Shown piece after piece: positions 4,897-18,281 of a DNA stretch of 36,407 bases. The notes under the pieces are model-generated. The model did no database searches. It was given only the letters and a program-made list of their open reading frames with translations, and had not been told where the DNA came from. The stretch is from positions 376,029-412,435 of the IMG/VR virus record IMGVR_UViG_3300032007_000003; one strand, given 5' to 3'. A program made the position numbers and the translations under genes. Each line of letters starts with the position of its first letter. Within the stretch, counting starts at the first letter, position 1. This DNA comes from a virus. Its lineage: Duplodnaviria; Heunggongvirae; Uroviricota; Caudoviricetes.

Positions 4897-4982
4897 ATCT
4901 TTTTGGATTAAAATAGTTAATAAACAATGATGTATCAATCTCAAAAGAACGCTTGTCAAATGTCATTGTTTTCGTTTGACGA

Positions 4983-5016
4983 TGCAAAGGTACGAAAAAA
5001 AATCCATTCCACCAAA
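4983..5016 (-). promoter_or_regulatory. Bacteroidota-type promoter
   Basis: Minus strand TTTG-20nt-TACCTTTGCA. Confidence 0.8.
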
Positions 5017-5387
5017 CATTTACCCCATTTTTAAACACTTTTTAAGGAAAAAGACCTTGTTTTAACATCAGTTTACAAAAAAACCACTATTTTTACTGGT
5101 TTTCATGTACTTCACACCATGAACATAAAACATGATAGGAAAACGCACATACATACGCACATATATAGCCATAGAAATACGGATAATGCGTTTTAAAGCT
5201 ATTTTTAAACCCTCTGACAGCCTTTTGCACCCTTCTCCGATAACTTTTACATCTGACTACATAAAAACGGCTTAAAACAAGGATTTCACATTTGTTTATA
5301 TATTCTGTTAACGAATCTTTAACAAAATGTAGTTTTTGTAAGAAAACAAGAAAAAAACAATGATTTTAGTTAAAAATTGTATAAAAA

Positions 5388-5421
5388 CTTGCGTATCTCA
5401 AAAAAAATGCCTACCTTTGCA
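5388..5421 (+). promoter_or_regulatory. Bacteroidota-type promoter of the sigma factor gene
   Basis: CTTG-20nt-TACCTTTGCA. Confidence 0.75.
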
Positions 5422-5468
5422 CTCGCAAACAAGAAATTTAGTATTCACCCACAAAAAAAGAATAGGTT

Positions 5469-6182
5469 ATGAAGAAAATGATTAATTTTAAGGAGAATGG
5501 TTTTGTAGTTCGTAACGAGATTATCGAAAAGCTCCGTGTTGAAGTAAATCGTTTTAAGGTACTCGCACATGACGAAGTAATTAATCTTATCATGGATGCC
5601 CAAAATGGCAATGAGAGAGCACGTACAAAGGTCATTAACGCCAATTTGCGCCTTGTATGGTCTGTGGCTGCATCCTATGGTACAATGATGGATTTTTCCG
5701 ATATGTTCCAAAATGGTTCTATCGGTTTGTGCATGGCTATTGACACTTATGATGTTTCACGTGAAACAAAGTTCAGCACATGGGCAACCGAGTACATCAG
5801 AAAGCAGATTAATATCGGTTTGAATAATGATAGCCGAGTGGTGCGCATGGGTGAGCATGAGATTCGTGCGAAAAAAGCGTACAATGCTAAGAGCATGGAT
5901 GCGCCCATCTGCAATGAGGATGGTGAAGAAAAAACTTTCCTCGATTTCTTTCCAAGCAGTATGTCGGCTGATAACTTCTCAAAGGTCGAGGATATGCGTG
6001 TCAAGATTAATTACCTCATGTCAGCCTTGAAACCTATCGAGAGAGAGGTAGTGTGTGGGCTATTTGGGCTGTCCGATACCTTAGAAACGGAGAATAGTTT
6101 GTCAGAAAAATTCAACCTCACTACCGAGCGTATCAGACAAATCAAGTGGGAAGCACTCACAAAGATGAAAGAAATTGCGTGA
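5469..6182 (+). CDS. phage-encoded sigma-70 family RNA polymerase sigma factor
   Basis: Region 2 NLRLVWSVA, QNGSIGLCMAIDTYD, FSTWATEYIRKQI; region 3 SMDAPI; region 4 HTH LTTERIRQIKWEALTKMK. Confidence 0.92.
   Translation: MKKMINFKENGFVVRNEIIEKLRVEVNRFKVLAHDEVINLIMDAQNGNERARTKVINANLRLVWSVAASYGTMMDFSDMFQNGSIGLCMAIDTYDVSRETKFSTWATEYIRKQINIGLNNDSRVVRMGEHEIRAKKAYNAKSMDAPICNEDGEEKTFLDFFPSSMSADNFSKVEDMRVKINYLMSALKPIEREVVCGLFGLSDTLETENSLSEKFNLTTERIRQIKWEALTKMKEIA
5753..5768. promoter_or_regulatory. parS consensus palindrome (inside the sigma gene)
   Basis: TGTTTCACGTGAAACA, a 16/16 match to the bacterial parS consensus. Confidence 0.7.
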
Positions 6183-6198
6183 AAAAATCTTGACAGAC

Positions 6199-6225
6199 AA
6201 GCGGAGAGAAATCTCCGCTTTCTTT
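6199..6225 (+). terminator. intrinsic terminator
   Basis: AAGCGGAGA-GAAA-TCTCCGCTT then TCTTT, after the sigma stop. Confidence 0.8.
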
Positions 6226-6256
6226 ACATTTTATGAGGTAAAAAAATATTTACACA

Positions 6257-6272
6257 CGTTTCACGTGAAACA
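6257..6272. promoter_or_regulatory. parS-like palindrome, second copy
   Basis: CGTTTCACGTGAAACA, 15/16 match; intergenic. Confidence 0.7.
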
Positions 6273-6535
6273 TTATGGGCGAGTAGTGCCCCCACCATAG
6301 GTGGCCCCTACGTCTCCCGTGGTGGGGTGGGGGATTTTAACACTCTTTAACACGCCAACAGTTCTGTAAATAAATTCCAGGAAAAAAAAATTGTCTTCTG
6401 AGAAGGGGGTGGTCCAAATTTATTCATGGGCATGTTCAAAAAAATTCTGGAAAAATTTTTTTAAAAAAAATGCATATTACTATTGAAATTTATGTCCCCT
6501 CCCATTATATTTTATAATAAGAAGTGTTTATAAAT

Positions 6536-7648
6536 ATGAAAGGAATTATTTACAAATGGACTTGTAATGTAAGTGGAAAGAGTTACATTGGTCAAACTGT
6601 TAATGAAAAAAGAAGAGAAAAAGATTTTTTAACTGAGGGTTCATATGCTGGTGAAAAGATAGACAATGCTCGAAAGAAGTATGGACTATCTAAAGATGTA
6701 TGGACTAAGGAAGTACTTAAACGTTTATGGTGTAAAGATGGCAAGGAGAATGAACTAAGAGAGCGTTTAAACTTCTGGGAACGTTACTATGTTGAACTAT
6801 TTGATACATTTAAAAATGGTTATAACTCAACAAATGGCGGTGATTGCGATTTTTCTGAAGAAGTTGTTGCTGAAATGAGAAAGAGGGGTAAAGAACGATG
6901 GGGTAGTCTATCTGAGGAAGAAAAAAACAAGCACAAAGAACGTTCATTAGAGTATTGGAATAATCTATCTGAGGAAGAAAGATTTGAATTTGGTAATTTT
7001 GGTAATTTGTATTGGAAAAGTTTAAGTACGAAAGAAAGAAAAGTTCTAATAGAAAAATCCAAAGAAGAATATGATAAATGGCGTTCTTCTGTATCTGACG
7101 AAGAGTTTTATAGAAAAGTAGTAGACTGTCATCGAGGACATTCAATTGGTAGAGCCATACACAGTTCTAAATTGAATAGGGGTAGAAAACGTTCTGAAGA
7201 AATTAAGAAGTATCTTTCTGAAATTAATAAAGGTAAAAAACAAATTGGTTATAAAGTTTTTAAATATTCAGAAAATAAGTGTGAATTAATTAAAGAATAT
7301 GATAGTATATTAGAAGCGGCAAAATCTATTGGTGTTAAGACTGAAACTTTATCTAAACATAATAATTGTAATTACAAGAATTTTTATTGGGAGATAAAAA
7401 AACCTCAAGGGGTAAAGGGTTATAGTTGGAATAAAAGATTGGGTAGGTGGAATGCAGGAATAAAATATAATGGAAAGAGTTATGACTTAGGGTGTTTCAA
7501 ACATGAAGAGGCTGCTCACGAAATCTATCTAATTGCCAAGAAAAAAATAGAAGAAGGTAGTTTCGAGGATTGGGAGTTAAATCATAAATTTGATGATAAA
7601 ATAAGATTATACGAAAAATACGGTGAGAAAATGCGTAACTTAATATAG
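6536..7648 (+). CDS. GIY-YIG homing endonuclease with NUMOD-like repeats and a C-terminal AP2-like DNA-binding domain
   Basis: GIIYKWTC...SYIGQT...E...NGYN; GRKRSEEIKKYLS (NUMOD3-like); YDSILEAAK (NUMOD1-like); KGYSWNKRLGRWNAGIKYNGKSYDLGCF..EEAA (AP2-like). Confidence 0.88.
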   Translation: MKGIIYKWTCNVSGKSYIGQTVNEKRREKDFLTEGSYAGEKIDNARKKYGLSKDVWTKEVLKRLWCKDGKENELRERLNFWERYYVELFDTFKNGYNSTNGGDCDFSEEVVAEMRKRGKERWGSLSEEEKNKHKERSLEYWNNLSEEERFEFGNFGNLYWKSLSTKERKVLIEKSKEEYDKWRSSVSDEEFYRKVVDCHRGHSIGRAIHSSKLNRGRKRSEEIKKYLSEINKGKKQIGYKVFKYSENKCELIKEYDSILEAAKSIGVKTETLSKHNNCNYKNFYWEIKKPQGVKGYSWNKRLGRWNAGIKYNGKSYDLGCFKHEEAAHEIYLIAKKKIEEGSFEDWELNHKFDDKIRLYEKYGEKMRNLI

Positions 7649-13805: not shown

Positions 13806-16800
13806 TTAGAAATCTGCGAGTGCATCGACAGTTTCAGCGTAGTTATACTGTATATCATCGAAGACGTATCCACCAGTTGAAGGTGTACGATTTGGTATCT
13901 TCTTGAAATACAATCTCATATCTGATGAATTGAGTGTCATTAGATTTTCTATTGATTTTGGCAGAACTCCATCTTCCTCAAATTCATCCACCTCATCGTT
14001 TGTAATTTCCTCAAGAGCATCGAGATACTTCTGATTTTCCTCTTGGAACATAGCGTTGTTCTCTTCTTCCTTTTCTTTTTTATAGTTTTCAACAAGGGCA
14101 TCCCAATCAATTCCACATTCCTTAACGAATGGTGGAACTTCGTTAATCTTGAGCCAATATTCGATTTCCTTTTTCTCTGGAGTCATCAATGCCTCATATG
14201 TATCTTGGTCTCCCTCTTTATTTGGATAACCACTTACAAGCTTTGATTCCTCTTCAGTAAAGTACTTCTTATCTTTTGGATTGGTTACAAGTATTTTATC
14301 TCTAATATCTGGGTGGAAACATACCAATAGAGGTCTGATTCTATTATTGAATTGGTCAATGTATTTCTCAACATTGTACTCAAGACCCTCATAATCGCTG
14401 CAAAGCACGTCATCCTCAGTATCAAGAATTTCTTTTGGTACTAGTTTACAATTAAGTATGATTTCATCCTCATCGAATACCTTTGCTCCGAATTTCTCTC
14501 TACCTAATTCAAGTCTGTTTTTCTTATCTTTCCAACCATTCGCCTTGAACTCCTTGGTATATTCCTTATATGCCTTTTCCAATTCCTTTGTTATCTCAAC
14601 CTTTTCACCATCAACGTAGTTATAGTAGTGTGTAACACGTTTAACGTCTGAGTGCCCTTTCTTCTGACCAGTGTTGATGTAATATACTGTATCACCTACA
14701 TTTGGTGTTAGACCTTCCTTGAGTGCGAGTTCATACCAAGCTTGGCGTGATTTCTTTGAACCAGCCTTGGTGAGTGTTTTAGTATCAGCTTCATAGTCAG
14801 CTAACGTTTTCTTGATATTCCCTTTTGATGCTATATCTCTGATAGGAATTTGGTAGTTATATATTTTACCGATATAGTCATAATAATTTGACAAGAACTT
14901 ATATCCATTATTTCTAAGTAGAAGGTCAACACCTTCATCGATGAATTTCTCAAGGTATCCACTCATCTTTCTAGACTTAATGGTATTACCCACTTTCTTT
15001 GTTTTACCATCTGGCATCAAGTCAGCGTAGTTCTTTCTTGCGAACTGGATACAAGCATCACAATACTCGTCTATACCCAAACCCATCTTATTGATGCCAC
15101 CATTATATGCTTGTGATAGATATATATCCTCGAATTCTGCTACGTCAGCATCAACACGTGTATATTCCTTACCCTTGATGGAATTACGACCAGCTCCATT
15201 TGAAATGTATGGATGTTCCTTTGTATATCTAAAGTCCTCTTCTCTTGGCATTTGGAAGTTGAAACCATCGGTGTTGTGGCATACTATCATACCGAGTGCG
15301 TTAACAAATGTTCCATCAGCAGAAATATCATATACATATTCTGATTTACTTGTAATGTTAGAACAACTCCACACTTCGTCTTCTTTTCTCTTTGAATAGT
15401 TTTCGTTCAATAGACTTCCACGATGATTTCTAAGTCTGAAACTAATGAATTCTTGTTTATCATTTCTATTATGACAACGGAAATTATAATCAAGTTCTTT
15501 CATCAAGAAATAAAGTCCAGCCATTGCAACCTTTGATTTCTGCCCAAACTCTATACATTCATCAATTGTATCGTTTTGTCCATCACCACAACAGAATCCA
15601 TCTAAGAATGCTTTCTTCACTTCTTTCTTGGCATTTAATATGAACTCTGGAACTTTCTTATATCTATATGATGTATAGAAGTTATTGGAGAAGAATTTAG
15701 CATTTTCAGCATTCTCAACGACAAGATTATAAACATTGGATGATGTTCTATGGTCTTTTATTGATGCCTTTAACAAGAAACTGTTCTCCATAATCTCCTT
15801 TGCCTTATTAAGTCTATTAAGGGATTTGTTAGAAATTTTCCAACTTGCTCTCTTCCCTTTGTGCGTTACCCATTCACCTTTTCGCTTAGAATAGTACTTT
15901 TGAGTTCTATCACAATATACAGAACTACCATCTGCCATAAAGAATCCAAATAACCAAGCCTCCCTATCAGTTACGGTTGAACTTGCAAAATAGTTAATAT
16001 CTTTTGTGTATATTTCTATTTTGTCACCACGAGCAAGCGTAGAAGGTTTCACCTCATTACCATTATTGTCAAACAATGAATGGTCTTCAGTACAATCAAT
16101 GACACCATTTTTGGTTTCAACTCTCTTGAGTTGTTTATTTGTTTTATGCTTATAGACATATTCAATTGGTTTCCAACCGTTCCTTGTAAGGACTTCATAA
16201 TCTTTCTTAGAGAAATCTCTGTATTGTCCTTGTTCAAATTCTACAGCTTCATTAGCATTGAATATGTCGCATATTGGTATAATATCAATTCTATTATCTT
16301 TACCCTTAATAAGTATAGGTGTATCATATGTAACGCTATCTCCAACGATTGGTTCGTAACCTATTGACCTAAAGTGACTTATCATCAATCTCAATGCCAT
16401 TCTACTGATACAAGTTGTCTTTTCTGCTGCAAGAATATCTCCGAATGGGAATACATTTGGTGAACCATAACCACCGAAGAATGAGTTTGCAAGAATCTTA
16501 AGAGGCAACTGTTTCTTATCGTTACCGCTTTTTTCAGCTTTCCAGAATGTGATTTGTTCCTCGATTTCAGTCTTCTCACTACCTTCAGCAGTCTTAAGCT
16601 TATCCTTAAGTGAATCAACCTTATCTCCTGCATCTGCTTTAAGTCCCTTATATTTTTCACGTTGTGTTAAGATATATTCAAGGAATGAAAGCATGACATT
16701 CATCACATCGATTGGTGTTGATACGTGCCATGTAAGGATTACAGATGGGTAAAGTGAGTTATAGTCAAGCTTCACGATACGGTCAACGTATCCTGTCTTA

Positions 16801-18206
16801 AGAAGTCGTGAAAGACCACCTGTGAATCGTTTATTAGGTGCTGCTGCTGGAATTGCTAGGTTGTTTTCATAACACCATGCAAGCATGATAAGTTTCCAAA
16901 TACCAGCTGTACCCATTGTACATGCTCTTGAGAAGTTTGTAGGCAACATCTTACCAACAAGGAAGTTAGACTCATTTAGTTTGTCTTCAACCTTATCGGT
17001 TTCCCAAATATCATCTAGAAGGTATCGTTCAACGATATATCTACCACTTACTAGATTATATCCTTTTAATAATGGTTTTTTATCTGTTACTCTATACCAA
17101 TCACCATCTTCCTCACAAAGCCCATATACTTTTTCTTTTACGTTCCATGTATCAGTAATCTTATCACCTGGAACGTATACTCTGTTTGGTTTCTTAAGGT
17201 TAAGATATTTTGTGACATATTTCAAGTTTGATTTCTTCATGTTTGAGTCGATTGCTTGTGCTCTACGAGCTGCATGAAGTGAATCAAGCACGTTATGTCC
17301 CCACATGATTGTTGGGTAGTAGTATTCTACCTCTCCACCAAGTTTAAGGACTGATGCCTTTTTCTTCTTATATATTGCGTGTTTGAAATATTGTAGTGAT
17401 AGTTCTGAGAAGTCTATACCATAGTGTTCACAGCGAACAATGAAGAAGTTCCAGTCGAAGTTTTCTGAGTTATGACCAACCACCGTATCTGGTTTCAATT
17501 CAGCCAATATTTGAAGGAATTCCTTGATTGCAGCGATTTCGCTTGCATCTAGTTCTTCCTTTGTGCTACCTTCCACTTCGATTATCTTCTCATATCCTTT
17601 ATTGGTGCGTATACCAATCTGTTCAATTCTGTGTCTCTTTGGGTCAAGACCTTGTGTTTCCAAGTCAAAGATGAAACGATTGAGTTGGTTATAGGACTCA
17701 TAGCCCTTAAAGAGTCTACGTCCAGTTGCAATCATGTATTGCTCGATTGGAGTAATACCCATAAACTCTCTGTTTCCACTTGTATTTACCTCGTCTTTCT
17801 TTTGTCTTGGGTGAATTGGGGTTCCAGCTTTAGAGAAGAAGCCTTGGAATACTTGGTTACTCATTTTTCTAGTGGTGTAGAAAAGGTATTTATAACCGCT
17901 TTCCAATCGTTCATGTTCCTCTCCGCTATCGTTTGAGGTGATTAGTTTTTTTACTTTGATGCCGTACATGTTCAGATACTTTCTGAGTTCAGACCTATTG
18001 CCTCCGAACATTCTTATTGCGGCACTGTGTTTTACCCAAATAAATGGTTTAAAGGCATCTTTTCTGACTCTTTTAATTCCATTTTGGTCAACGTAGATAA
18101 TGCTAACTTCATCTTCGTCCCAAGCGCACTCAATGGATATTATTCGTTCCATTGGGTCGTGTCCGTTAAGAAAGGTGTTAACAACCTCAGTTGTAATCTC
18201 TTTCAT
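13806..18206 (-). CDS. family B DNA polymerase with 3'-5' exonuclease, intein-containing
   Basis: ExoI FDLETQG, ExoII HNSENFDW, ExoIII YLLDD, DYNSLYPS, KILANSFFGGYG, and VGD|TDG split by an intein. ATG at 18206 preferred. Confidence 0.95.
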   Translation of the reverse strand: MKEITTEVVNTFLNGHDPMERIISIECAWDEDEVSIIYVDQNGIKRVRKDAFKPFIWVKHSAAIRMFGGNRSELRKYLNMYGIKVKKLITSNDSGEEHERLESGYKYLFYTTRKMSNQVFQGFFSKAGTPIHPRQKKDEVNTSGNREFMGITPIEQYMIATGRRLFKGYESYNQLNRFIFDLETQGLDPKRHRIEQIGIRTNKGYEKIIEVEGSTKEELDASEIAAIKEFLQILAELKPDTVVGHNSENFDWNFFIVRCEHYGIDFSELSLQYFKHAIYKKKKASVLKLGGEVEYYYPTIMWGHNVLDSLHAARRAQAIDSNMKKSNLKYVTKYLNLKKPNRVYVPGDKITDTWNVKEKVYGLCEEDGDWYRVTDKKPLLKGYNLVSGRYIVERYLLDDIWETDKVEDKLNESNFLVGKMLPTNFSRACTMGTAGIWKLIMLAWCYENNLAIPAAAPNKRFTGGLSRLLKTGYVDRIVKLDYNSLYPSVILTWHVSTPIDVMNVMLSFLEYILTQREKYKGLKADAGDKVDSLKDKLKTAEGSEKTEIEEQITFWKAEKSGNDKKQLPLKILANSFFGGYGSPNVFPFGDILAAEKTTCISRMALRLMISHFRSIGYEPIVGDSVTYDTPILIKGKDNRIDIIPICDIFNANEAVEFEQGQYRDFSKKDYEVLTRNGWKPIEYVYKHKTNKQLKRVETKNGVIDCTEDHSLFDNNGNEVKPSTLARGDKIEIYTKDINYFASSTVTDREAWLFGFFMADGSSVYCDRTQKYYSKRKGEWVTHKGKRASWKISNKSLNRLNKAKEIMENSFLLKASIKDHRTSSNVYNLVVENAENAKFFSNNFYTSYRYKKVPEFILNAKKEVKKAFLDGFCCGDGQNDTIDECIEFGQKSKVAMAGLYFLMKELDYNFRCHNRNDKQEFISFRLRNHRGSLLNENYSKRKEDEVWSCSNITSKSEYVYDISADGTFVNALGMIVCHNTDGFNFQMPREEDFRYTKEHPYISNGAGRNSIKGKEYTRVDADVAEFEDIYLSQAYNGGINKMGLGIDEYCDACIQFARKNYADLMPDGKTKKVGNTIKSRKMSGYLEKFIDEGVDLLLRNNGYKFLSNYYDYIGKIYNYQIPIRDIASKGNIKKTLADYEADTKTLTKAGSKKSRQAWYELALKEGLTPNVGDTVYYINTGQKKGHSDVKRVTHYYNYVDGEKVEITKELEKAYKEYTKEFKANGWKDKKNRLELGREKFGAKVFDEDEIILNCKLVPKEILDTEDDVLCSDYEGLEYNVEKYIDQFNNRIRPLLVCFHPDIRDKILVTNPKDKKYFTEEESKLVSGYPNKEGDQDTYEALMTPEKKEIEYWLKINEVPPFVKECGIDWDALVENYKKEKEEENNAMFQEENQKYLDALEEITNDEVDEFEEDGVLPKSIENLMTLNSSDMRLYFKKIPNRTPSTGGYVFDDIQYNYAETVDALADF
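15273..16337 (-). mobile_element. intein (355 aa) with LAGLIDADG homing endonuclease
   Basis: Starts SVTYDTPILI; block B CTEDHSL; LFGFFMADGS and FLDGFCCGDG; block F VYDIS; ends CHN before a +1 Thr. Confidence 0.93.
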
Positions 18207-18281
18207 GATTTGAATTGTTTTGCTTTTGTTATTTTCGTTGAACCTTAAGACATACCAAGATGTCATCAGTTCTTAGGTTTT

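Follow-up and report, generated by a model that had tools for sequence, protein, structure and literature searches.

What would a 412-kb phage do with two copies of the sequence at which bacterial chromosomes load ParB, one of them written into the reading frame of a sigma factor gene? The locus lies in the window analysed here, meaning the whole stretch of DNA examined, which is 36.4 kb long and ends a 412,435-bp IMG/VR phage record whose GC content is 34%. ParB loads at parS as a CTP-dependent clamp, spreads along the DNA, stimulates ParA and recruits SMC. The reading we regard as probable, while well short of certain, is that the two sites are copies of the host centromere, that host ParB loads on them and that the most likely use is to have the phage genome positioned or segregated as a host replicon.

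The phage, which is uncultured, encodes a T4-type Gp23 capsid protein, and most of its genes have no known function. Three complete genomes of its clade are available (G000, G001, which is locus L122, and G002, which is L123), at 412.4-412.8 kb, and all of them carry the sigma/parS locus. The locus sits at 381, 241 and 158 kb in the three records, which are therefore circular permutations, in keeping with a single type of genome; its position near the end of a record consequently carries no meaning for an origin of replication. An origin at the locus also found no support of its own, as cumulative GC skew climbs near-monotonically, following gene orientation, without a turn there, and DnaA boxes occur at chance level, with 12 found against 14 expected and none at 4900-6600. 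A blastn search with the locus found nothing similar among cultured phages, a single-protein search against viral contigs was likewise negative and an Rfam search matched only a tRNA. Elsewhere in the window, an intein bearing a LAGLIDADG endonuclease domain splits a family B DNA polymerase, 1486 aa in length (Table 1).

An initial annotation of this DNA had described two chromosomal-type parS 16-mers about 500 bp apart, one of them in frame within the DVSRET peptide of a sigma factor. Both lie where they were placed, at a spacing of 504 bp, and the in-gene site, parS-1, is indeed an exact 16-mer, read as GAT GTT TCA CGT GAA ACA (D-V-S-R-E-T) from 285 nt into the ORF. The second site, parS-2, falls one base short of the 16-bp palindromic consensus tGTTtCACGTGAAACa used for matching, and so the description of two 16-mers is exact for the first and approximate for the second. 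parS-2 is intergenic, 75 bp past the sigma stop codon, directly behind a terminator and between converging genes. No other site with two or fewer mismatches turned up anywhere in the 412,435 bp of the record, and the two other complete genomes likewise have just two sites each, at the sigma locus. From base composition, exact 14-mer parS cores are expected about 0.0014 times per genome, against which two within 504 bp exclude chance. As far as sequence analysis can tell, both 16-mers are functional copies of host-type chromosomal parS. More widely, more than 119 IMG/VR viral contigs contain an exact TGTTTCACGTGAAACA (loci L003-L121 among the matches listed), and several of the contigs listed (L008, L022, L023 and L062) have 3-5 clustered copies.

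Table 1. Coordinates of the sigma/parS locus and of other features discussed in the text (window positions).
Feature	Position	Strand	Details
parS-1	5753-5768	.	16/16 match to TGTTTCACGTGAAACA; codons D95 to T100 of the sigma gene
parS-2	6257-6272	.	CGTTTCACGTGAAACA; 15/16, mismatch at position 1 (C)
Sigma-70-family gene, 237 aa	5469-6182	+	Pfam PF04542, PF04545 (Sigma70_r2, r4); PHROG 351
Intrinsic terminator hairpin of sigma gene	6199-6220	+	Immediately upstream of parS-2
Sigma -7 promoter box TAccTTTG	5412-5419	+	Bacteroidota-type; host-RNA-polymerase early promoter
24-nt promoter block, first copy	4969-4992	-	Begins TACCTTTGCAnCGnCAAAC
24-nt promoter block, second copy	5412-5435	+	Begins TACCTTTGCAnCGnCAAAC
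Divergent ORF, 224 aa	4285-4959		
GC-rich hypervariable module	6275-6340		About 55 nt, with G4-6 and C4-6 runs
Conserved intergenic words	6345-6460		ACAGTTTTGTAAATAAATTCCWGGAAAAAA, then AAAAATTCTGGAAAAAAA about 70 nt on
Free-standing homing endonuclease	6524-7648	+	GIY-YIG-like N-terminus, NUMOD1 and HNH-type C-terminal matches
Family B DNA polymerase	13806-18266	-	

The phage seems to bring no partition proteins to these sites. Six-frame HMM searches of the three complete genomes with ParB models (PF02195 ParB_N, TIGR00180 and PF17762 HTH_ParB) gave nothing credible, and searches of the same genomes found neither a ParA (PF13614, AAA_31) nor a tyrosine integrase. Searches of this type could miss a phage-encoded parS binder of very divergent sequence. 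The earlier remark that the window holds no parA or parB gene is thus correct, and extends to the whole genome and to the two other complete genomes of the clade. The phage carries host-type parS without a detectable ParA or ParB of its own, and so the host's own ParB would be expected to recognise the sites.

The sites are kept in close and distant relatives alike. We collected 266 homologues of the sigma protein at 56-98% identity. All 12 relatives from viral contigs (56-72% amino-acid identity), two of whose loci belong to complete genomes of about 412.5 kb, retain both sites. Across 68 distinct full-length sigma genes from viral-contig and metagenome loci, 50 have both sites and 66 have at least one; the in-gene site stands alone in nine, is present with the downstream sequence missing in four, and is absent in three that have the downstream site only. 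The two genes without either site encode proteins less than 50% identical to the sigma protein of the window. With nine relatives lacking the downstream site and three lacking the in-gene site, neither copy is individually essential. Where enough downstream sequence was available, parS lies 0-94 bp past the stop codon in 53 of 64 relatives. Two more divergent homologues (L333 and L337, 40-42% identity) have parS just behind the sigma gene and none within it, from which the intergenic site looks older than the in-gene one.

Conservation of the in-gene site goes well beyond what the protein requires. Where two main lineages share a residue, they share its codon in only about 45-60% of cases, and the synonymous sites of the sigma gene are thus largely scrambled, yet the codons of the palindrome stand still: S97 (TCA), R98 (CGT) and T100 (ACA) are each kept in 13 of 13 sequences and V96 (GTT) in 12 of 13. 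The string GTT TCA CGT G[A/G]A ACA is essentially invariant, and these codons recur throughout a set of about 70 sequences. A single codon is used in only six of the 46 invariant columns of at least fourfold degeneracy, and three of those six fall in parS. When 27 sigma representatives below 85% identity were ranked window by window, parS-1 emerged as the most conserved 16-nt stretch of the gene, and codons 96-100 as the top-ranked five-codon window, with third-position conservation of 0.96-1.0 against a gene mean of 0.58. That synonymous positions of the palindrome might be conserved among sigma homologues had been raised when the sites were first noticed, and both the codon and the third-position tests bear it out strongly. 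The parS sites are under strong purifying selection at the DNA level, beyond coding constraint, across a deep clade.

This selection reaches into the protein. In distant sigma homologues the equivalent peptide is variable (DATKGV, DSEKGA, DPERGT), which indicates that here VSR[E/G]T is imposed by the DNA site. Residue 99 (5763-5765), normally the conserved glycine of the 'R-G' motif of sigma region 2, has switched between Gly (GGA) and Glu (GAA) at at least eight places on a quick tree of L122-L337, and its two states match the accepted parS variants, Gly giving GGAAC and Glu giving GAAAC. In the ancestor, the R-G-T codons (CGT GGN ACN) presumably amounted to most of a parS half-site from the outset. 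The locus is thus a clean natural example of coding sequence constrained by an overlapping predicted DNA-binding site, which freezes five codons and a sigma peptide and toggles one residue between two accepted centromere variants.

Which ParB might read these sites depends on the host, and the expression signals of the phage point to Bacteroidota. Shine-Dalgarno motifs precede 12% of its start codons, equal to background, and the sequence is A-rich at -15 to -12; TAnnTTTG, which we take to be the -7 box of the Bacteroidota promoter consensus, is about threefold enriched upstream of its genes. From these -7 boxes and the lack of Shine-Dalgarno enrichment we infer a Bacteroidota host. Bacteroidota are not known to sporulate. 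Among Bacteroidales candidate-host genomes, located by a 16S probe scan, Segatella copri, Prevotella sp. and Xylanibacter ruminicola each encode one canonical ParB and carry a pair of parS sites 580-820 bp apart, flanking a small phosphoribosyltransferase gene between gidA/mnmG and uvrC. In the wider sample of the Prevotellaceae family, 81 of 101 genomes have 1-4 parS, the great majority of them GTTTCACGTGAAAC or GTTTCACGTGGAAC, with pairs frequently found at a spacing of about 625-730 bp.

The variation tolerated in the phage sites has the same form. Across 117 parS sites in relatives, changes occur almost exclusively at positions 1 and 12 (A12G), the four central bases are invariant and none carries a compensatory double change; in the alignment, the intergenic site is invariant save for rare single changes, mostly at position 1. 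The A12G change yields GTTTCACGTGGAAC, the commonest natural parS variant in the candidate host family; the parS of B. subtilis is of this GGAAC form too. By sequence, then, the phage appears to copy the parS of its candidate hosts in both variants, together with their two-site layout.

These patterns also bear on whether the resemblance to parS could be coincidental, the palindrome being instead the operator of some other phage DNA-binding protein or an RNA hairpin. Room for an unrecognised binder exists, given that most phage genes are of unknown function and that the conserved divergent neighbour of the sigma gene has no family match; tested as a candidate parS binder, this neighbour gave no Pfam, PHROG or Atlas lead. 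An arbitrary 16-bp palindrome, however, would equal the universal parS only about once in 65,000 (calculated as 4^8), and the variants tolerated here are exactly the host's own. A hairpin is in keeping with A12G, which still permits a U-G pair in the stem, but not with an invariant central tetrad and the lack of any compensatory double change; moreover, parS-2 lies behind a terminator, and the consensus fold offers only a trivial 5-bp stem. We therefore consider a coincidental match very improbable. Binding by host ParB, favoured by the match itself (4^8), by the host's own pattern of variation and by the absence of a phage ParB, seems by comparison of these sequences likely.

What ParB would do once bound is less clear, and the location of the sites invites one answer at once. 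The sigma gene is a lone plus-strand early gene, and in nearly all relatives the two parS bracket its 3' two-thirds, such that host ParB in and behind the gene might silence or block its transcription and delay later expression when ParB is abundant, a link to sigma factor repression that the initial annotation had also entertained. Chromosomal ParB is generally a weak silencer, which counts against it. In Pseudomonas aeruginosa, ParB represses promoters that adjoin parS, as stated in one report (10.1101/151340). Here, however, the conserved promoter box TA[AC]CTTTG, kept 53-58 nt upstream of the sigma start codon in nine of nine relatives checked, lies about 340 bp upstream of parS-1 and is overlapped by neither site. 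When operator placement was tested, neither parS overlapped or adjoined a promoter, which makes an operator role unlikely and repression of the sigma gene less likely. Furthermore, parS-2 stands past the terminator, in a convergent gap, and some relatives have the downstream site only. Regulation of the sigma gene is thus, in our estimation, quite unlikely to be what maintains the sites.

Several other elements surround the gene. A 24-nt promoter block occurs in two copies pointing away from each other, one for the sigma gene and one for the divergent ORF, and the -7 box TA[AC]CTTTG together with CACTCGCAAACAAGAAA is conserved in all relatives checked. Behind the gene, the order is stop codon, terminator, an optional 30-nt block, parS, a GC-rich hypervariable stretch and GGGGGATTTTT, and the genes downstream of parS-2 are on the minus strand, converging on the gap. 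The stem of the terminator shows compensatory changes among relatives in the alignment. The GC-rich module lies between a conserved TTRTGGG and GGGGGATTTTT, and its versions in relatives are mosaic and non-alignable. Single module sequences fold into hairpins (z -1.3 to -5), but a shared structured RNA was rejected, as RNAalifold finds no common structure; the converging genes are probably separated here by a variable set of terminators that act in both directions. Two words that follow it, ACAGTTTTGTAAATAAATTCCWGGAAAAAA and AAAAATTCTGGAAAAAAA, are present in all relatives and are possibly signals for the converging minus-strand block. A free-standing homing endonuclease occupies the convergent gap right behind parS-2; it is found in L124 (88% amino-acid identity) and L132 (47%), is absent from L123, L126, L127 and L133, and is replaced by other ORFs in L122 and L125, so that only some relatives have an insertion here, either the endonuclease or a different plus-strand ORF.

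A further possibility is that the phage sites act as decoys, depriving the host chromosome of ParB and thereby of SMC loading and ParA control, so that segregation or division is disturbed to the benefit of the phage. With only 1-4 parS in most candidate hosts, a few phage copies would outnumber the chromosomal ones, and the phage has neither lysogeny functions, as judged by the search for tyrosine integrases, nor plasmid functions. A decoy would nonetheless be expected in many copies, and in this clade the number is strictly one or two, confined to one locus. We regard titration as unlikely on this ground, while noting that either titration or SMC loading could just as well be the purpose of loading chromosomal ParB onto a virulent phage; an SMC-based organisation of the very large genome is a further possibility.

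We therefore return to use of the host centromere machinery by the phage, the co-option of host ParB suggested by the initial annotation, which is supported as far as sequence can carry it: the sites are host-type parS of functional form, in a phage without ParB. Under this proposal, host ParB would recognise the phage parS and close into CTP-dependent clamps, which would spread over the neighbouring phage DNA and form a partition complex like that at the host's own two-site centromere. The phage genome would then be positioned or segregated as a host replicon by ParA-driven partition, possibly with SMC loading. Such a step would be of use when lytic growth is delayed, as the non-sporulating counterpart of the Spo0J-dependent spore entrapment of phi29. 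That the downstream function is positioning or partition during delayed lytic growth is a possibility to which, from analogy with phi29, we give somewhat less than even weight. We advance more tentatively still, as rather unlikely to hold in every part, the fullest form of the proposal, in which virulent T4-like phages of 412 kb, forming a deep clade on non-sporulating gut Bacteroidota, rely on a two-site centromere mimic for plasmid-like partition by the host ParABS during stalled (carrier-state) infection, and selection on the site dictates a sigma peptide and drives the repeated Gly/Glu flips. A persistent episomal state is conjecture, because the phage has no integrase (tyrosine integrases were searched for) and no plasmid-type replication or partition module.

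If host ParB does load at these sites, centromere hijacking would not be special to phi29 but a recurrent strategy of lytic-looking phages, extending well beyond those that infect spore formers. This would also offer a concrete mechanism by which giant gut and rumen phages persist in dividing hosts without lysogeny.

The principle itself is not new. Host-type parS is already used by two virulent Bacillus phages, phi29 and Nf (Meijer et al. 2005, in the summary given by PMC2731898); phi29 has five such sites, and according to PMC2731898 host Spo0J takes part in moving its genome into the prespore. Within the body of literature searched, no paper described phages using host ParB beyond phi29 and Nf, or carried the phi29 mechanism over to non-sporulating hosts. 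What is new here is the combination of a non-sporulating host, a giant phage, mimicry of the two-site layout of the host and a centromere that fixes a sigma factor peptide. As in phi29 and Nf, a phage without its own ParB bears several copies of the host chromosomal parS; those phages exploit host ParB (Spo0J) so that their genome travels with the host chromosome, and the likeness here is confined to the ParB step. The five sites of phi29 lie in a 19-kb protein-primed podovirus that infects a spore former and benefits from spore entrapment, whereas the phage described here is a 412-kb T4-like virus of an inferred non-sporulating Bacteroidota host, with two sites at one locus, one of them within the sigma coding sequence. 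Given the Bacteroidota-type signals and a host group not known to sporulate, the benefit cannot be spore entrapment of the phi29 kind and must differ.

Plasmid-prophages offer another comparison. Like P1 with parABS and N15 with sopABC, this phage has a genome that bears a centromere, but P1 and N15 bring both ParA and ParB and have centromeres specific to the element, whereas the phage here has neither protein and carries the sequence of its host. A third comparison is with the chromosomal parS of Bacteroidales such as Segatella, Prevotella and Xylanibacter. It is the 16-mer of the phage, in both the GAAAC and the GGAAC form, and its sites typically make up a pair a few hundred base pairs apart, partly within coding sequence, as here. 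The phage pair differs from theirs in its spacing (about 430-505 bp across the phage clade, against 580-820 bp on the chromosome), and in belonging to a viral replicon, not beside gidA near an origin, and with no parAB on the same molecule. Mimicry of the two-site centromere of the host also sets the phage apart from phi29.
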